From: a virus
Virus record (IMG/VR): IMGVR_UViG_3300032288_005579
Reading direction: 5' to 3' (one strand)
DNA length: 64,000 bases
The notes beneath the pieces were generated by a model that ran no database searches, was not told the DNA's origin, and saw only the letters and a program-made list of their open reading frames with translations. The stretch's first letter is position 1, and each line of letters begins with the position of its first letter. Positions 2,586 to 50,996 of this stretch are shown piece after piece. The translations under genes were made by a program, and so were the position numbers.

Positions 2586-4895
2586 ATGATACAAAAAAGT
2601 TACGTAATGGTGGACACCATGGACAAGTTCCGTGCCATGGCAGACCACGTTAAAAATAACGACATAGTCGCTTTCGATACGGAAACAACGTCTCTCAATC
2701 CACGAAAAGGTAAGATCATCGGTTTCTCAGTCACTCCGGAAATAGGTTACGGTTATTACGTACCTACGATGGTTTTTAAGGATGGAAACTTACAGGATAC
2801 TTACATCGACGGCAAATTGACTCATGATCTCGCTAAGAAGTTCATGACTGCATTGACAACCAAGAAACTTGTGATGCACAACGGTTCATTCGACTGCCGC
2901 TTTGTCAAGTGCTTCTACGATGTTGATCTAATTCCCAGCTTATACGCGGATACTATACTGTTAGTTCATACTCTGATGGAAGAGGGCGCTGGATTCGGTT
3001 CAAAGTCTCCATTCGCTCTGAAGGAAATCGCTAAGACGATTCAGAACGAGATAGGACTTGACGTTGAGAAAGAAGCTAACGAGGAGCAAGTCGAACTTAA
3101 GAATTCTATTAAGAACAACGGAGGTTCAATAACTAAAGAGAATTACGAGATCTTTAAAGCAGACATTGAGATTCTCTCTAAGTATGCTGCGGCCGATACA
3201 GACTTAACACTTAGAGTGTTCAATTACTTCGAACCGCAACTAGAGTCTCAAGGTCTAAGAAAGTTTTATTACGAAGACGAAGTCATGCCTCTTTACAGGG
3301 AAGTTACGATTCCCATGGAAAGTCGAGGCGTCAGACTGAATATGCCGCTGATAACAGAGGCAAAGAACAGAATTAGTGAAGATCTAAAGAAGTACCAAGA
3401 ACTGGTAATAAAAGAGCTTCTTGCTCACATAGAAGTCAGAACGTGGGTCATATATAAAGCTACTGAAGCTTATCCTCCTAACCACAAGGGAGCTTACGCT
3501 CAAGAACTGGTTTCCATGTACAACATAGATATACCTAAGTCTGAAAAGACTGGAAAGTATAGCATAACTAACGCCAATGTATCTCAACTGCCAGATAACG
3601 AGATAAAAGAATTCTTGGTTACAGGCAACGCAGAGTCTCTACCTGAGGATGTAAGATTGAAGGTGAGCATGAAACTCTGGAAAGAGGATAACGCGGGTCA
3701 ATACTTCAACATACAGTCTAAGGATCACTTAGGAGAAATAGCATTTGGTGCCTTAGGCATCCAACCCATTTCAGAGACAAAAACAGGTAAACCTCAATTC
3801 GATGAAGACATGATACAAATCATCGCTGAGGATCACGATTGGGCCAAGAATTTGCGCATCTACAATAAGTTGATGAAGATCAGTTCTACTTACATGGATC
3901 GGTTCTTGGAAAGTCACGAAGATGGTAAGTACTATTTTTCCTATAAGCAACACGGTACAGTTTCAGGTAGATACGGCTCAGACGCTCAACAGTTGCCAAG
4001 GCCAAAAGAGGAGGGTGAAGACGAACAAGTCATCGTTGAATACAACAACCTTGTTAGGGCGTTCTTCATACCTTACGATGGGAACATATTCATAGATAAT
4101 GACTACGAATCTCTTGAACCCAAGACGTTCTCTCACGTGTCAGGAGATGAGGGACTTATGGACATCTTCAGAAACAATTGGGATTTCTATTCTACGATCG
4201 CTATAAAAACCGAGAAACTTAATCAGTATTCTCCTGACAAAAAAGCCCCTAACTACTTAAGAAAGCTTGCTCCACAATTGCGCAACAAGGCCAAAGCGTA
4301 TTCGTTGGGTATACCTTACGGTATGGGTGCATATGCATTGGGTAAAAATATTGGAGTAAAGACTAAAGAAGCTGAAGAACTTGTAAATGGATATCTGAAT
4401 GGATTTCCTAATCTTAAGAAGTGGATGGAGGAATCTAAAGCGTTCGCCAAAGAAAACGGTTTCATAAAAACGCAAGTAGGTCGAATAAGACACTTACCAA
4501 AAGTTCAAATACTGTATAGCAAGTACGGAGACAGGCTATTCGATTACAAGTTCAAACTGCAGTTGGAGAAACAAAAGGGAAAAGAATACGTAACGAACAT
4601 GTTCAGAGACTATAAGAACGGTCTGAACAACAGTCTAAACGTCCAGATACAGGGCTTAGCTGCATCAATCGTGAATAGGGCGGCGATCGCAATCAATCGT
4701 GAGTTCAAGAAACTTGGCATATCAGGTCAGGTCGTCGCCCAAATTCACGACCAGCTGATCATGGAGGTCGAAGAATCAAGATCTAAAGAAGCAGCAGAAG
4801 TCGTTCAGGATATGATGGAAAATACGACCAAGCTTAAGATACCTTTAGTAGCAATTCCTTCGATTGCCCATAATTGGAGAGATGGACATGGCTAA
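2586..4895 (+). CDS. polA: DNA polymerase family A (3'-5' exonuclease plus polymerase, no 5'-3' exonuclease)
   Basis: ExoI FDTETT, ExoII HNGSFD, ExoIII YAAAD; motif A DYESLEPK, motif B KAYSLGIPYG, motif C QIHDQL. Confidence 0.95.
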   Translation: MIQKSYVMVDTMDKFRAMADHVKNNDIVAFDTETTSLNPRKGKIIGFSVTPEIGYGYYVPTMVFKDGNLQDTYIDGKLTHDLAKKFMTALTTKKLVMHNGSFDCRFVKCFYDVDLIPSLYADTILLVHTLMEEGAGFGSKSPFALKEIAKTIQNEIGLDVEKEANEEQVELKNSIKNNGGSITKENYEIFKADIEILSKYAAADTDLTLRVFNYFEPQLESQGLRKFYYEDEVMPLYREVTIPMESRGVRLNMPLITEAKNRISEDLKKYQELVIKELLAHIEVRTWVIYKATEAYPPNHKGAYAQELVSMYNIDIPKSEKTGKYSITNANVSQLPDNEIKEFLVTGNAESLPEDVRLKVSMKLWKEDNAGQYFNIQSKDHLGEIAFGALGIQPISETKTGKPQFDEDMIQIIAEDHDWAKNLRIYNKLMKISSTYMDRFLESHEDGKYYFSYKQHGTVSGRYGSDAQQLPRPKEEGEDEQVIVEYNNLVRAFFIPYDGNIFIDNDYESLEPKTFSHVSGDEGLMDIFRNNWDFYSTIAIKTEKLNQYSPDKKAPNYLRKLAPQLRNKAKAYSLGIPYGMGAYALGKNIGVKTKEAEELVNGYLNGFPNLKKWMEESKAFAKENGFIKTQVGRIRHLPKVQILYSKYGDRLFDYKFKLQLEKQKGKEYVTNMFRDYKNGLNNSLNVQIQGLAASIVNRAAIAINREFKKLGISGQVVAQIHDQLIMEVEESRSKEAAEVVQDMMENTTKLKIPLVAIPSIAHNWRDGHG

Positions 4896-4980
4896 ATGCT
4901 ACATAAAATATCAGTAATTCTTGTAGGGGCTTATATAAACAAACTGGTGGATACACGTGGAAATACTCTAAGTAATTGCA

Positions 4981-4988
4981 TATTTATA
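4981..4988 (+). promoter_or_regulatory. TATTTATA motif (candidate phage late promoter)
   Basis: Exact octamer 26 nt upstream of ATG 5015; recurs before many gene blocks. Confidence 0.55.
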
Positions 4989-5014
4989 GAAAAACAAACA
5001 CAAACACAATAACT

Positions 5015-5191
5015 ATGATAGCGAACATCTTATTTTGGGTATTAGCAGCCGGAGTAATCGGATTCATCGGCTACAAATTCGTTCAAATGCAAAAAGACTC
5101 TAAAGGAGGAAACACTGGAAATACTTCTGGTGGTGGAGGCGGAACTGTTGGAGGCGGAGAAGGCGAACTGCCTAAGGATAACATTAAGTGA
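5015..5191 (+). CDS. Small single-pass membrane protein with Gly-rich tail
   Basis: MIANILFWVLAAGVIGFIGYKF transmembrane segment then GGNTGNTSGGGGG; ATG 5015 preferred over the track start at 4976. Confidence 0.65.
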   Translation: MIANILFWVLAAGVIGFIGYKFVQMQKDSKGGNTGNTSGGGGGTVGGGEGELPKDNIK

Positions 5192-5199
5192 TCCTACTC

Positions 5200-5236
5200 A
5201 AAAAAAAAATAGCCCCATTATTTGGGGCTTTTTTTT
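5200..5236. terminator. Bidirectional intrinsic terminator
   Basis: A-run, AGCCCC-attattt-GGGGCT hairpin (5211-5229), T-run. Confidence 0.85.
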
Positions 5237-5280
5237 GCTCACTGAAAATGAAAATTTTTATAAGAACTCAAGAATGTCTA

Positions 5281-5288
5281 TATTTATA
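5281..5288 (+). promoter_or_regulatory. TATTTATA motif upstream of hsp20
   Basis: Exact octamer directly before the left inverted-repeat arm. Confidence 0.55.
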
Positions 5289-5294
5289 GACAAA

Positions 5295-5322
5295 TAAACG
5301 ATAGAGGTACGACAGGCCTTTA
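5295..5322 (+). repeat. Left arm of long-range inverted repeat flanking hsp20
   Basis: TAAACGATAGAGGTACGACAGGCCTTTA pairs with 5823-5849: 26 Watson-Crick pairs, 1 G-U, 1 bulged A. Confidence 0.9.
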
Positions 5323-5382
5323 AGTTATGACAGAGTTAAATTATTCATTAACCAAAAAAACGTCACAGGAGGACGTAACATT

Positions 5383-5820
5383 ATGACACAGTTAACTAAA
5401 TTCGCAGGTTTTGATCTTGATCCATTCGATCTGTTGTGGAGGAATTTCATAGACCACGACTCAAGATTCAACACACTACTAGAAAAAGTAAACTATCCCA
5501 CGGATATTTACGAAACCGAAGAAGGTATCACCTTCGAACTGGCCGTTGTAGGCTTGGATTCCAAAGACATCTCTGTAGAAACACAAGGAGAAGTGCTGAG
5601 GATCAAATACACAAAAGAAAAACACGAGGACGAGGCAAAGTATATCTACAAGGGTATTGCTAAGCGTTCGTTCGATTTGGCTTGGAAGGTTTCTTCTAAG
5701 TTCGACCTCACCAAACTTGAGGCTCAACTTGAAAGGGGACTTTTGACCATCCGTGTTCCTTTCGCTGAGACCGCGAAAGCAAAAGCAATCCAAATCAAAG
5801 AAGTAAAACAAGTAGGATAA
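5383..5820 (+). CDS. hsp20: Small heat shock protein (Hsp20 / alpha-crystallin)
   Basis: YPTDIYET, ELAVVG, YIYKGIAKRSF, LERGLLTIRVP; AGGAGG upstream. Confidence 0.92.
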   Translation: MTQLTKFAGFDLDPFDLLWRNFIDHDSRFNTLLEKVNYPTDIYETEEGITFELAVVGLDSKDISVETQGEVLRIKYTKEKHEDEAKYIYKGIAKRSFDLAWKVSSKFDLTKLEAQLERGLLTIRVPFAETAKAKAIQIKEVKQVG

Positions 5821-5822
5821 GA

Positions 5823-5849
5823 TAAAGGCCTGTCGACCTTTATCGTTTA
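5823..5849 (+). repeat. Right arm of hsp20 inverted repeat; also folds locally as GATAAAGG/CCTTTATC hairpin (5821-5844)
   Basis: Reverse complement of 5295-5322; starts 3 nt after the hsp20 stop. Confidence 0.9.
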
Positions 5850-5852
5850 GTT

Positions 5853-6044
5853 ATGTTTTCCCTATGTACACAATTCATCACCGTCCAGGAAAGTCTCTAT
5901 AAAATAGAGAGAATATTTGATGAGCACAGAGTCCCTGACGTTGAGCTTTTTAAATACTGGCTCCGTGCTGAAACAGTGTTCAGAAAGGATGGAAAATTGT
6001 ACTTTTGTAACAAAATAGAAGAAGCAGAAATTGTAAACGAATAA
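5853..6044 (+). CDS. Small hypothetical protein
   Basis: 63 aa ORF filling the gap between hsp20 and groES. Confidence 0.6.
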   Translation: MFSLCTQFITVQESLYKIERIFDEHRVPDVELFKYWLRAETVFRKDGKLYFCNKIEEAEIVNE

Positions 6045-6050
6045 ACAACT

Positions 6051-6344
6051 ATGAGCAAATTAAAACCATTGAATGGAAATGTGATCCTTAAAAAGGTCGA
6101 AGAGTCCGAACAAACTTACGGACAGATAGTCATACCCGACATGGGTAAAGAAAAACCGGAACTTGGCGAAGTAGTCGCGGTCAGCGATACGTACAATTGG
6201 CACAAAGGTTCGGATGTTGCGTCTAATCTCAAACCCGGTCAACTGGTGTTGATTCCAAAAATGGGAGCTATGTCATTCTCTATAGACACTGAGGATTATA
6301 TCATCATTAAGGAAACTGAGGTACTATCAATCATCGAAAAATAA
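6051..6344 (+). CDS. groES: Co-chaperonin GroES
   Basis: LKPLNGNVILK, GQIVIPD, GEVVAV, IIKETEVL; adjacent to groEL. Confidence 0.93.
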   Translation: MSKLKPLNGNVILKKVEESEQTYGQIVIPDMGKEKPELGEVVAVSDTYNWHKGSDVASNLKPGQLVLIPKMGAMSFSIDTEDYIIIKETEVLSIIEK

Positions 6345-7960
6345 TGAGCACAACTAAAAACGTATTCGGCACAGAACTCAAGGAGAAGCTGTACGCCGGC
6401 ATATCAAAGCTTAACGAGTCCGTATCTTCTACGCTTGGACCGGGAGGTCGCACCGTACTGATTCGCGAACAGAACGGAGAGGTTAAAGTTACCAAAGACG
6501 GTGTATCAGTAGCAAAAGCATTTCACAAGTTGGAGGACGACATCGAGGACCTTGGCGCACAACTCGTCAAGCAAGTGGCGATCAAGTCCGCTAACGAAGC
6601 TGGTGATGGTACTACGACTTCTACGCTTCTCGCCGCCGAGATTGTAAATCAAGGCATCAAAGAGGTCCGTGGAGGTCGTAATGCTGTCGCTATCAAGCGT
6701 GAGCTAGATAAATTGACCGCTGAAGTGATCGAAGACATCAAGAAGATCGCCATTCCCGTAAATTCAGAAGATCAGATTAGGCAAGTAGCGACCATTTCAG
6801 GTAACAACGACGAAGAGGTCGGAAACCTTATTGCTACTGCTATTGAAAAAGTGGGTCGCGAAGGCGTTGTGACCATCGAAGAGTCCAAGACGGGTGAGAC
6901 CAGCTTAGAAGTTGTGGAAGGCATGCAGTTCGATCGCGGCTACAAGTCGCCTTACTTCGTGACCAACAACACCTCCATGCAGGCTGTTTTAGAAGACTGC
7001 TATGTGATGCTCTTCGATGGAAGAATATCTACGGCGCAAGAACTTCTCCAAGCATTGACCAAGTGTAACTCAGAAAACAAACCTCTCTTGGTGATCGCAG
7101 AAGATTTTGGAGATGAAGCTCTTGCTACTCTTATCGTAAATAAGATGAGAGGCATTGTACAAGTGTGCGCAGTAAAAGCGCCAGAGTTCGGAGAGAGAAA
7201 AACACTAGTGCTTGAGGACATCGCAATCCTCACAGGCGGTCAAGTACTGTCTAAGGACAAGGGTCACAAACTCGATAAGATTCCTTCAGCACAACTGTCT
7301 CAATACCTCGGTAAAGCTAGACTCGTAACCGTTTCCAAAGAGGATACGACAATCGTAGACGGAAAGGGTTCCTCAGAATCCATCGAAGCGCGCGCTAATG
7401 AGATCAAAGAGCAGATCGAAAAATCGCAATCGTTCTTCGAAAAAGAAAAACTACAAGAGCGACTGGGTAAAATGGTAGGCGGTGTGGCCATCATCAACGT
7501 AGGCGGTAACTCTGAGATCGAGATCAAGGAGAAGAAGGACCGATTGGAAGATGCGCTATACGCCACTAAAGCGGCACTCGCAGACGGTATCGTAGCAGGT
7601 GGTGGAGCCACCCTGTACAGGCTTTCGATAGCTCACAGAGGAACCACTACGGCGGAAGGCGACATCGCGTACATGATCCTTCAGGACGCTTTGCAAGCAC
7701 CGTTCGAAAAGATCCTCAGTAACGCTGGAATCGAGAACTGGTGGGACAACCTTCCAAGGGGCGAGAATGAAGTGTTTGACGCTAAGAATCGTAAGATCGT
7801 GGACGCGTTCGAAGCCGGCATCATCGATCCTGCAAAGGTTGTGATCACTGCCCTTAAGAACGCAGTCTCGGTCGCTGGTACAATTCTCACCACAGAAAGC
7901 GTGGTATTCGAGAAGAAGGACAAAGACGAGAAGGCGGATCCTATGGCGGGAATGATGTAA
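6344..7960 (+). CDS. groEL: Chaperonin GroEL
   Basis: [48 protein letters not shown]. Confidence 0.98.
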
Positions 7961-7969
7961 ATAAAGGTT

Positions 7970-8068
7970 AGTCAGGTAGCGGAATGTAGACGCAGGTCGT
8001 AGGTAGCACCGTTCACAAACAGCCTTATAACGTGGTGAACATTACAGGTTCGAATCCTGTCCTGACTA
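7970..8068 (+). ncRNA. tRNA-like RNA 1 (Leu-like D arm, non-canonical anticodon region, 99 nt)
   Basis: Acceptor AGTCAGG/CCTGACT, D arm GCG-gaatgtaga-CGC, T arm ACAGG-TTCGAAT-CCTGT; no 5-bp/7-nt anticodon arm. Confidence 0.6.
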
Positions 8069-8145
8069 CGATGTTGAGTAGCGCTCAAATGAACTTAGGG
8101 CGGTTTCGGGCTAGCCTAAGAGAGATCGACAAAAAGCCCGTACAT

Positions 8146-8269
8146 AGTCAGGTGGCAGAAAGTAATGCAGGTTACAGTACTCCACGGGGCAACACGGTCT
8201 AGAACGTGGGAAGTCTAAGACAAGCCAGCCCGTCTGAAAGTGGTGCAGGTTCGAATCCTGTCCTGACTA
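8146..8269 (+). ncRNA. tRNA-like RNA 2 (124 nt, expanded centre)
   Basis: Same acceptor AGTCAGG/CCTGACT, D arm GCA/TGC, T arm GCAGG-TTCGAAT-CCTGT; about 70 nt centre with CCACG/CGTGG stem. Confidence 0.6.
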
Positions 8270-8275
8270 CAAAAT

Positions 8276-8364
8276 AGTCGTGTGGCGCAAGTGTGAAGAA
8301 TAAGCACCTAGGGCAGCGAGCTGCGGAAACGCGGAGGTTGTGGGTTCGAATCCCATCACGACTA
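8276..8364 (+). ncRNA. tRNA-like RNA 3 (89 nt)
   Basis: Acceptor AGTCGTG/CACGACT, T arm GTGGG-TTCGAAT-CCCAT; centre has CTGCG-GAAA-CGCGG hairpin instead of an anticodon arm. Confidence 0.55.
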
Positions 8365-8420
8365 CAAAGTGGAGCAACATGTGCAGTAGCCACAGGGTCC
8401 TAGGTCCCACTGCACTCTAT

Positions 8421-8493
8421 CGCGGGTTATGGAAGTGGTCATCCGCCAGGTCTCATAAGCCAGGAATCGGGGGTTCGAATCCCTCACCCGCTA
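8421..8493 (+). tRNA. tRNA-Met (CAT), initiator-like
   Basis: Cloverleaf with loop CTCATAA, T arm GGGGG-TTCGAAT-CCCTC, C1-U72 mismatch, one A-A mismatch in the anticodon stem, no encoded CCA. Confidence 0.75.
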
Positions 8494-8498
8494 CTAAA

Positions 8499-8625
8499 GG
8501 GTTGATCGGGGAAGTGAGGTTCGTTAACCTGTCGGTGGAGGTGGAACCTTGTGAGTTGTAACCGACCGAGTAAAGCCGATCTTAAAAGCGGGTGTCCACG
8601 CAACCATCTCCCGCTTTCCTTTTTA
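8499..8625 (+). ncRNA. Candidate structured RNA ending in a terminator-like hairpin
   Basis: Stems GATCGG/CCGATC, AGGTT/AACCT, GTCGGT/ACCGAC, AAAGCGGG/CCCGCTTT plus T-run. Confidence 0.45.
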
Positions 8626-8686
8626 TTGTTACACGTAAAATGAATTTTTTTATGTTCTTAAAATATTGTTATATTACCAAAAAAGC

Positions 8687-9733
8687 ATGCAAAAATTCAT
8701 AATCAACAAAGACTTATTGGCTGCGCTTGACGATTACGATCGCAAGAGCAACCTCATGGAGAAACACTCCAACGTGGGGCTTCCCTACGAAGGAGACCTC
8801 AAAGCAGACGTCAACGACGATCTGATCTACCACGTACCAATCTACGATACATGTCAGCGGAGATTCGCGGCCTTCTGTTCTTTCACTGAGGCCATATGGC
8901 ACAAGCACGAGGATCCGCGCAAGATGGGAAAACACTTCGCAGATCACCATATACCCGAAGAGTTCGATTGGTTCATGCTGTGGTATTTGTTTCGACTGTG
9001 CGGCAGCGGCATCAACTATGTGCCTCGCTACTCTAAAGAAACCATTAAAGACATACTCGGTACCCACGGTTATGGCAACTTCTGGATCATCGACTCTATA
9101 TTGAAGGGTCGTTACACTTGGCAAGAGTGGAGAGAAGATCTGAGAAACCGCATCAGACCCTTCACAGACAATAAAGGATATCTGCTACCTCAATTCACGT
9201 TCGAAGGAGAGCGCAGCGGAAACCATCTGCGTAGGTTCATACTCGAACACTCAGAGAGATTGGTGAGACACATCTTCGATAAAGTAACTAAAGAGAGGAT
9301 GGACATCTATCAAGTAACCGATTACGGCAACGAGTACCTCAAAGAACAGGGATTCAAGAAGCAGAACTTCGTGCTCACAGCTTTTGCGGCAGACATAGCA
9401 GAATACATGCCACAGTACGTGAACCCTAAGGGATACGTGTACTGCGGAACCAACGCTGTGCGGTGCATCAACGCAATATTCCCAAAGGTGTCTAAGAAAG
9501 TAAAAGACTTCGAGTACCTCAACGAGGTGCTACAGTTTCTATCAGACAGATACAACTTGAACCCTATCGACTGCGAAGACGCGAGAGCGTGCGACGTTGT
9601 ACGATACTTCCAAGAATACCAGTCTCCAGATCATGTCATTAAGAATGATGGACGAAAGATGCTCAACAACTCTGTATTGAAGCAGATTTGGGGAGAAGAG
9701 AAGTATTACGACTTCGCAAACAAAATAAAGTAA
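8687..9733 (+). CDS. Hypothetical protein resembling the 5-hmdU DNA kinase helical domain (aGPT-Pplase1-like)
   Basis: FVLTAFAADIAEY...YCGTNAVRCINAIF resembles the F.ay.i..Dl...GPGa.rGl..lf pattern; WYLFR segment; next to a PLP enzyme. Remote, by-eye similarity only. Confidence 0.4.
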   Translation: MQKFIINKDLLAALDDYDRKSNLMEKHSNVGLPYEGDLKADVNDDLIYHVPIYDTCQRRFAAFCSFTEAIWHKHEDPRKMGKHFADHHIPEEFDWFMLWYLFRLCGSGINYVPRYSKETIKDILGTHGYGNFWIIDSILKGRYTWQEWREDLRNRIRPFTDNKGYLLPQFTFEGERSGNHLRRFILEHSERLVRHIFDKVTKERMDIYQVTDYGNEYLKEQGFKKQNFVLTAFAADIAEYMPQYVNPKGYVYCGTNAVRCINAIFPKVSKKVKDFEYLNEVLQFLSDRYNLNPIDCEDARACDVVRYFQEYQSPDHVIKNDGRKMLNNSVLKQIWGEEKYYDFANKIK

Positions 9734-46916: not shown

Positions 46917-47311
46917 GGGGGCGACTGGAATTGACAGGTGATGTCGATTGCTACTTGCAAGCCGAGTTAGATGGAAACTCGAAAATCCCCTATCATCGAA
47001 TAAACGCAGAGGAAATCTCAGCATTCACCTTCGAGGACGCAATGGCCTTCGTTGGTGCAGAGGAATACGCACTAGCGGCGTGACCTTACCCCGGTCCGGC
47101 ATCGGGGAGTTAAAAAGCCGGAAAAAGGTTTTCTTGGTAGTCGTAAAACCAAGTGGTGGACCATGGAGAAATCCGGAGCCCAGTATGGCGTAGCGGCCAA
47201 GTCGAACCGTTACCACCGTCAGTTCGAGCGGTGTGAGAATTCGAACTAAGCTTGTGAACGATAGTAGGGATTGGATTATTCTGGACGTGGGTTCGAATCC
47301 CACCGCCTCCA
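46917..47311 (+). ncRNA. ssrA: tmRNA
   Basis: 5' GGGGGCGACTGGAATTGAC; 3' GACGTGGGTTCGAATCCCACCGCCTCCA; G3-U70 pair; tag ORF 47006-47083 ending YALAA-stop. Confidence 0.95.
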
Positions 47312-47322
47312 CTAGGTCATTA

Positions 47323-50919: not shown

Positions 50920-50996
50920 GGGCCCTTAGCTCAGCAGGTTAGAGCAAATGACTCATAATCATTAGGTCGATGGTTCGAACCCATCAGGGCCCACCA
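50920..50996 (+). tRNA. tRNA-Ile2 (CAT, lysidine type)
   Basis: GGGCCCT/AGGGCCC acceptor, TTAGCTCAG..GGTTAGAGC D arm, AATGA-CTCATAA-TCATT, encoded CCA; resembles bacterial Ile2 rather than Met. Confidence 0.85.

Follow-up and report, generated by a model that had tools for sequence, protein, structure and literature searches.

To our knowledge, only a handful of bacterial messages (icaR, hbs, and yabJ-spoVG) are known to pair their own ends, and in each of these the pairing was found by experiment in a single species. Distant complementary flanks are also found in ribosomal RNA (rRNA) operons, where the sequences on either side of 16S and 23S rRNA, hundreds to thousands of nucleotides (nt) apart, pair, loop out the RNA between them, and form an RNase III site. 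The element described here lies in IMG/VR virus record IMGVR_UViG_3300032288_005579, which is 183,411 nt long and rated complete; the stretch of 64,000 nt analysed inside it is referred to below as the window. The record represents an uncultured, Flavobacterium-type phage, whose nearest isolates by DNA polymerase are the Flavobacterium phages vB_FspM_immuto (Immutovirus), at 54% identity. In the window, the gene for a small heat-shock protein, hsp20, stands between two complementary arms at 5295-5322 and 5823-5849 on the + strand, and these arms very probably pair as an RNA helix maintained by selection. The element is a new, lineage-wide addition to the small class of cis long-range helices in messenger RNA (mRNA).

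Each of the described systems shares some features with this locus and lacks others. The 5' untranslated region (5'UTR) of yabJ in S. aureus pairs with the yabJ-spoVG intercistronic region, and the duplex is an RNase III substrate controlling the downstream gene (bioRxiv 10.64898/2026.09.18.752551). The phage locus has the same 5'UTR-to-intercistronic topology, which in yabJ-spoVG sets downstream output apart from the first gene; however, the organism and the genes are different and there is no sequence relation, the setting here being a phage chaperone operon in a Bacteroidota-type host. The phage element also differs in that its 5' arm is at the very 5' end, where it competes with a conserved local hairpin (P1), in that its support is deep covariation, and in that the next start is left uncovered in one clade. 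The icaR mRNA of S. aureus pairs its 5'UTR with its 3'UTR to make a double-stranded RNase III substrate, a short UCCCCUG motif pairing with the message's own Shine-Dalgarno region and blocking translation (PMC3868564). The two ends of one message pair intramolecularly in both cases, but in the phage the enclosed start is free, the helix is 14-34 bp long, and its 3' arm lies between cistrons instead of in a terminal 3'UTR. In B. subtilis, a 14-bp helix between the 5'UTR and 3'UTR of hbs modulates RNase Y access and mRNA stability (PMC5737220). That helix is similar in size and likewise links a leader with sequence 3' of the stop codon in a small gene expressed at a high level, but hbs is monocistronic, the helix there covers an RNase Y site within a structured leader, and both the host lineage and the RNases differ. 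The processing stems of rRNA are alike in that a complete RNA segment is looped out by distant flanks, and here too the helix carries a strand-specific bulge; the enclosed RNA there is non-coding and untranslated, whereas here it is an open reading frame (ORF) along which ribosomes travel, and the 5' arm sits at the primary 5' end instead of internally.

The initial annotation of this stretch had proposed that the hsp20 message is enclosed by a long 5'/3' duplex, and its description of the repeat is exact: 5295-5322 and 5823-5849 form 26 Watson-Crick pairs, one G-U pair, and one bulged A. The sole departures from reverse complementarity are G5304 opposite U5840 (a G-U pair in + strand RNA) and the unpaired A5309. 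The left (5') arm, TAAACGATAGAGGTACGACAGGCCTTTA, opens at the seventh base after TATTTATA (5281-5288), and the right (3') arm, or anti-P1, opens at the third base past the hsp20 stop codon (TAA, 5818-5820), both as annotated. The right arm fills the spacer between hsp20 and the next ORF, orf63, and ends 3 nt short of its ATG (5853). With weaker extensions, the duplex predicted by RNAduplex joins 5289-5327 to 5818-5852 in 33 pairs, its right side beginning at the stop codon of hsp20 and stopping 1 nt short of the following ATG, with an energy of -44.5 kcal/mol compared with -15.7 +/- 2.8 kcal/mol in shuffled flanks (n = 500, minimum -26.2). The long helix is present in both the minimum free energy (MFE) and the centroid folds of 5290-5860 (z = -5.2). 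A repeat search reports the arm pair as two separate halves. The 12-nt core occurs at only two sites in the 183,411-nt genome, both in these arms, and a genome-wide scan for inverted repeats 100-4000 nt apart found no other above the 12-14 exact bases that shuffles reach. As the energy is far beyond that of shuffles and the repeat is unique in the genome, it is real, not a product of chance, and specific to hsp20. A dispersed repeat or regulatory cassette was considered and rejected, since the core occurs only twice and no other long inverted repeat flanks a gene. Searching Rfam 15 gave no match at the gathering score; the only matches below E 0.1 sit on the terminator upstream of hsp20.

For the arms to pair in cis they must be transcribed together. 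The ATATTTATA motif at 5280-5288 (+ strand), which contains TATTTATA and is conserved 5' of hsp20 in relatives, is a promoter-like variant of the Bacteroidota -7 element, described as TAHHTTTG with its last base at -5 (PMC6847099). Genome-wide there are 24 copies on the + strand and 5 on the - strand, nearly all of them just 5' of start codons and in gene orientation; those in the window include 4980-4988, 5280-5288, 14780, 37071, 42014, 52137, 56155, and 63034. About ten genes have an ATG 2-5 nt 3' of ATATTTATA, so leaderless mRNAs are predicted, with starts approximately 2-3 nt past the motif. For hsp20 the predicted transcription start is at approximately 5290-5292, 1-4 nt before the left arm, and the earlier guess that the transcript begins at that arm is backed by the genome-wide occurrence of the motif. 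The leaders behind ATATTTATA are 2-29 nt long for other genes and about 94 nt for hsp20. An intrinsic-terminator-like hairpin followed by a T run (5211-5236, + strand) closes the upstream polA/orf71 unit, and the hsp20 transcript should therefore begin at its own promoter. Between the arms there is no promoter motif and no conserved terminator. The position of the motif, the upstream terminator, and the uninterrupted interval between the arms together suggest that both arms are carried by one transcript.

Related loci were collected with a profile of four hsp20 proteins, which yielded 80 IMG/VR loci, 71 of them with distinct flanks. The order promoter - hsp20 - (orf63) - groES - groEL is found in all 80, and a duplex between leader and spacer is found in all 71 distinct loci, in 62 distinct versions. 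These have a median of 22 pairs (range 14-34), with a longest uninterrupted run of 13 in the median, and the longest version belongs to the window phage and its two closest relatives. The arm sequences are clade-specific and each is matched by its own spacer, for example CGAGATACAGGTAGGTCTCG, AGCAATACGGTAGGTTGCT, TGGCACTGTAGGTAGGCCA, AAGATACTTGACAGGTCTT, and GAGGTACTGTGAGTAGGCCTC; there are at least 15 arm types. Left arms pair with their own spacers at a mean of -28.7 kcal/mol, compared with -16.7 kcal/mol for spacers less than 70% identical, and the own spacer is better than every distant one in 56 of the 71 loci. When an ungapped core was anchored on the invariant AGG for counting pair types, positions -7 to +3 showed two to four Watson-Crick pair types each; position -4, for example, has C-G 18 times, U-A 13, A-U 9, and G-C 5 (45 of 48 Watson-Crick). 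Pairing in the core reaches 82%, against 67 +/- 1.6% with permuted partners, and none of 500 permutations was as high. In a MAFFT alignment, 80.9% of the cells of 11 core pairs are paired; sliding the partner by 1-3 columns lowers this to 24-54%. Doubly changed cells number 72, against 25.5 +/- 4.1 in shuffles (0/500 as high), with 9 of the 11 pairs affected. On a tree made from hsp20 coding DNA alone, the Watson-Crick pair-type switches at core positions sum to a minimum of 48. The initial annotation had left it to relatives to decide whether the repeat is conserved; the pairing there is both conserved and covarying, which supports a long-range RNA helix enclosing the hsp20 message. Phage hsp20 genes do not have such a helix in general: in three cyanophages and in Methylophilales phage Melnitz, the flanks of hsp20 pair no better than shuffles.

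The left arm can also fold on itself. This hairpin, P1 (5297-5326, + strand), has an energy of -7.4 kcal/mol in the window phage and excludes the long helix. P1 stems of at least 4 bp are present in 71 of 71 loci, with a mean of -5.8 kcal/mol, and comprise 41 distinct covarying pairs, such as TGGC/GCCA, CAAGA/TCTTG, GAGG/CCTC, and TAGGA/TCCTA, around a conserved loop. P1 was scored sequence by sequence, because differences in loop length shift it out of register in MAFFT, so that RNAalifold on the leaders missed it. Universal presence with 41 covarying stems means that P1 is selected in its own right, and varying stems around a conserved loop are the signature of an RNA hairpin rather than of a protein operator. 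Stem-loops at the 5' terminus can stabilise mRNAs, as in E. coli ompA, and P1 alone could be what matters in vivo, as such a stabiliser, if co-transcriptional folding and ribosomes made the long helix rare and the right arm were selected for some other reason. The universality of P1, its independent covariation, and the approximately 530 nt between the arms all fit that explanation, but it gives no reason for the spacer to match the loop and the 5' strand of P1 at each base across at least 15 arm types, and by itself the right arm shows neither conserved structure nor a coding role. P1 acting alone is very unlikely.

The two arms were originally thought to fold locally in competition with the duplex, the right one as a terminator-like hairpin, and the left half of this idea holds through the conservation of P1. 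The right-arm hairpin, GATAAAGG/CCTTTATC (5821-5844, + strand; 8 bp, 3 of them G-C; -9.0 kcal/mol), is peculiar to the window phage; across the 71 loci the local fold of the right arm has a mean of only -2.4 kcal/mol and is 0 in several. The switch derived from it, in which the helix and this hairpin would alternate to control read-through into groES-groEL, possibly in response to temperature, can point to local folding of both arms in the window phage (-7.4 and -9.0 kcal/mol), to a T-rich stretch 3' of the right hairpin, to a consensus scan that picks the hairpin up, and to the conservation of P1, by which two mutually exclusive folds do exist. Its terminator, however, is not conserved, has three G-C pairs and an interrupted U tract, and comes from a scan without enrichment (6 found in the region, 3.9 +/- 1.9 expected); antitermination into groES-groEL therefore has no comparative support. 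Nor are the alternatives in balance: in 69 of 71 loci the long helix exceeds the combined stability of the two local folds by over 10 kcal/mol, and in the same 69 it is 20-35 kcal/mol more stable than the local folds, too stable for heat to open. Temperature dependence is unlikely on the same ground, since a helix of -25 to -45 kcal/mol would stay closed at physiological temperature, and it makes no contact with the initiation region of hsp20. An RNA thermometer of the ROSE, fourU, or cyanobacterial hsp17 type would be a weak, imperfect hairpin that hides the Shine-Dalgarno sequence and AUG of the heat-shock gene and opens at 37-45 C, and the element does not match it, the helix being too stable and the hsp20 start unsequestered. 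The proposed terminator switch is accordingly highly improbable. A weaker form of the idea of two alternative folds survives, because the conserved competitor of the long helix is P1 in the left arm.

Predicted folds of whole transcripts and predicted start accessibilities were obtained from MFE calculations on 20 representative loci. The helix is part of the MFE structure of the whole transcript (approximately 600 nt) in 20 of 20. The hsp20 AUG lies outside the long helix, P1, and the leader hairpin P2, and its predicted accessibility is the same with and without the left arm (0.66 vs. 0.66). For the start of the next gene, the left arm lowers the predicted accessibility from 0.50 to 0.40. 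This bears on a translational gate, in which the helix would bury the initiation region of orf63, and by coupling affect groES and groEL, until opened by ribosomes finishing hsp20 or by cleavage. The right arm ends 1-7 nt before the AGUUAUG of orf63 in most clades, and the 5'-terminal AUAA pairs with the UUAU of the orf63 start context. The host lineage lacks Shine-Dalgarno sequences and tunes initiation by local structure (PMC6847099), and yabJ-spoVG represses its downstream gene in this way (bioRxiv 10.64898/2026.09.18.752551). Yet the effect on accessibility is small and inconsistent between loci, and the clade that lacks orf63, where groES stands at +53 to +62 behind hsp20, keeps the helix 20-30 nt upstream of the groES start and leaves that start open (unpaired 0.97-1.0 in loci L033 and L040). 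With the groES start free in this clade, start occlusion cannot be the universal function, and a translational gate is judged unlikely. Folding energies and start accessibility together argue against an antitermination switch, against a thermometer, and against start occlusion as a universal function, and the conserved design left standing is an exchange of P1 for the long helix nucleated on the exposed P1 loop.

Selection at the level of RNA is likely, as judged from the pattern of substitutions in the arms. The initial annotation had taken the single G-U pair as favouring RNA, and this argument is weakly sustained where mismatches are isolated by at least three Watson-Crick pairs on either side: six are G-U and none is A-C, and the six come from different clades, the G always being in the left arm. 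An interior loop beside the core gives further asymmetry: of 41 duplexes, 29 have the additional base(s), namely the A/C of a conserved UAC, in the left strand, 8 have equal strands, and 4 show the reverse; neither gene conversion nor a shared protein site would keep such a strand-specific extra base across clades. The ends of the left arm vary by compensation and its centre is conserved, which is the opposite of a protein operator such as CIRCE. The leader next door is also under selection for RNA structure, as indicated by the hairpin P2 (5360-5376, + strand), which has 4 bp, a bulged A, a further 1-2 bp, and a tetraloop, and which RNAalifold recovers in each of the 53 leaders aligned, 5 of its 6 pairs showing compensatory changes. 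Its tetraloops are GNRA, UUCG, or UUAG, its loop carries AGGAGG in the window phage, a conserved CACAAAAC follows 3' of it, and it too leaves the AUG of hsp20 outside. Some results weigh against the reading of the repeat as an RNA element. Over all core positions, helix ends included, G-U and A-C mismatches are nearly even (16 vs. 13); the duplex energies of the plus and minus strands differ by -0.8 kcal/mol (38 vs. 31 loci), which makes the strand test uninformative; and the evidence for strand and RNA level is on the whole moderate. Three positions of the loop core never vary, which the helix model does not explain and which hints at an additional, sequence-specific partner.

The alternative is an element acting as DNA, whether a looped pair of operators that bind a regulator, sites of recombination or inversion, or scars left where an hsp20 cassette inserted, with gene conversion keeping them similar. 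In its favour, three positions of the core do not vary, the G-U/A-C and strand tests favour RNA only moderately, an AGTTAT direct repeat follows both arms, and Immutovirus is without hsp20, a module having been gained or lost here. Against this, the arms are not a dispersed repeat, their ends vary around a conserved centre, the strand-specific bulge persists across clades, every isolated mismatch inside the helix is G-U when read on the sense strand, and a scar would not outlast approximately 50% protein divergence with at least 48 compensated switches. Inversion of the DNA can be dismissed: hsp20 is co-oriented with groES and groEL in 80 of 80 loci, and with polA wherever polA is present, so that it is inverted relative to them in 0 of 80, and no recombinase ORF was found in 3500-9500. 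In all, a DNA-level element is scarcely probable. A comparable operator is CIRCE, the HrcA-bound inverted repeat with a spacer of about 9 nt that lies just 3' of the promoter of chaperone operons including groES-groEL. The hsp20 leader resembles it in having an inverted repeat just past the promoter of a chaperone operon that contains groES-groEL, but the arms of CIRCE are conserved and contacted by protein, whereas those of P1 vary by compensation and its spacer is conserved; the phage element also has a second, complementary copy 530 nt downstream, and there is no sequence similarity. A CIRCE-like operator is ruled out by this pattern of conservation, with varying stems and a conserved loop.

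The reading preferred here, a cis long-range helix inside one polycistronic transcript that makes a double-stranded site for processing or stability, is fairly probable as a whole. The complementarity and the selection on it are documented above; in vivo, folding may proceed as follows. Transcription would start approximately 2-3 nt past the ATATTTATA motif, and the first 35 nt or so would fold into P1, a hairpin established by covariation. The spacer that follows the hsp20 stop, complementary to the 5' strand and loop of P1, would be made some 530 nt further on. It would nucleate on the exposed P1 loop, and P1 (about -6 kcal/mol) would give way to the long helix (14-34 bp and -25 to -45 kcal/mol across loci; 27-33 bp in the window phage), which joins the extreme 5' end to the junction of hsp20 and the next gene and loops out the whole hsp20 ORF while the hsp20 initiation region remains free. 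The resulting double-stranded RNA of roughly two turns may be handled by host RNase III, may shield the triphosphate 5' end, or both, and the amount and lifetime of hsp20 mRNA would then be uncoupled from those of orf63-groES-groEL. These consequences are suggested by analogy with yabJ-spoVG, icaR, and hbs. That the function lies in processing or stability is slightly better than an even proposition, and that RNase III specifically is involved is a reasonable supposition that falls somewhat short of even. An RNase III gene is present in a Bacteroidota control genome, and a median helix length of 22 bp is compatible with RNase III without being diagnostic of it. On the other side stand the absence of an RNase III gene from the phage itself, the uninterrupted runs (median 13 bp), which are shorter than in classical RNase III substrates, with interior loops in many relatives, and termination at the hsp20 stop, which lies 0-20 nt from the right arm and where ribosomes would transiently open the helix.

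A bolder use of the same exchange between P1 and the panhandle, as a timer reporting a completed transcript or as a bacterial closed-loop device, is quite unlikely. Here P1 would occupy the 5' end while the polymerase is still inside hsp20, and the emerging spacer would capture the partly invariant loop and close the message. The stop codon would then lie beside the 5' end, so that ribosomes finishing there could return to the hsp20 start, and closure might also free the invariant loop core from a specific protein or expose it to one. If this were true, the element would be a prokaryotic or phage analogue of mRNA circularisation that controls a stress protein independently of RNases.

The significance of the element depends in part on which of these functions it has. 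As an RNase III site and nothing more, it would be a tidy but unsurprising extension of the known cases; if the mRNA is closed for translation or timing, the biology would be new. The topology of the experimentally described pairs is met here with unusual comparative depth, in approximately 70 distinct sequences with at least 15 arm types and dozens of compensated switches. The element belongs to a large lineage of aquatic phages, uncultured and akin to Flavobacterium phages, in which a stress-protein gene heads the phage groES-groEL operon, and the phylum Bacteroidota, which does not initiate by Shine-Dalgarno sequences, has been little studied for its RNA biology. The locus offers a natural, well-defined setting in which to study the persistence of a long-range helix under passing ribosomes and the post-transcriptional separation of one cistron from the rest of its operon, and at approximately 35 nt plus 30 nt the element is compact and portable.

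The genes around the element all lie on the + strand, in the order polA, a small ORF (orf71), the terminator, hsp20, orf63, groES, and groEL. The hsp20 gene itself (5383-5820), the loop inside the helix, encodes a small heat-shock protein of 145 amino acids (Pfam HSP20, E = 8.6e-15; PHROG 432). A host origin of the gene was considered and rejected, as a pattern search of 185,579 representative genomes found no close bacterial homologue, the best hit having 25% identity. The start of orf63 (5853-6044), a conserved small ORF, abuts the right arm; it has no match in Pfam or PHROG, and its product may be a chaperone accessory protein. It is missing from one clade, where groES comes straight after hsp20. 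In the window, groES (6051-6344) and groEL (6344-7960) follow as downstream cistrons of the same predicted operon. In Immutovirus, a motif resembling this promoter and then groES-groEL come directly after polA, and hsp20 is missing, which means that the gene was gained or lost here as a module; since these nearest isolates lack hsp20, there is also no cultured system with the element. In vB_FspM_immuto_2-6A (MW353175; locus L086, 7330-7395) this "empty site" reads polA stop, AGATATTTATT, AGTTATTAACC, groES. The hsp20 leader of the window lineage has the same AGTTA...TTAACC, split by inserts, and AGTTAT occurs again 3' of the right arm. Comparison with the empty site suggests that hsp20 was inserted into an ancestral groES leader.

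Some smaller features of the leader and spacer vary between clades. A 19-codon upstream ORF (uORF) at 5327-5386 (+ strand) has a stop that overlaps the hsp20 ATG, but it is not conserved; coupling through it was rejected as a conserved feature because its ATG is found in only 22 of 71 loci and its length ranges from 2 to 21 codons. The uORF is probably incidental, the conserved part being the nucleotide motif AGTTAYR. A 26-nt direct repeat with 77% identity (5314-5339 and 5370-5395) duplicates the hsp20 start context (TTATGACAGAGTTAA and TTATGACACAGTTAA), and its first copy opens the uORF. In the clade without orf63 (L014, L016, L033, L038-L040, L044, L050, L052-L054, and L060), GUUUUGAAA stands right after the hsp20 stop and is complementary to a conserved CAAAAC just 5' of the hsp20 AUG, a possible second 5'/3' contact, in this case at the hsp20 initiation region. 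A canonical Shine-Dalgarno context, ACAGGAGGTTTAAAATG, lies 10-20 nt before the hsp20 ATG in L012, L029, L053, L067, and L070, unlike other genes and relatives in the lineage, which are without Shine-Dalgarno sequences. Elsewhere in the window, ARAGORN identifies a transfer-messenger RNA (tmRNA) gene with an unusually long tag of 25 residues (46917-47312) and two tRNA-Met genes (8421-8494 and 50920-50996).

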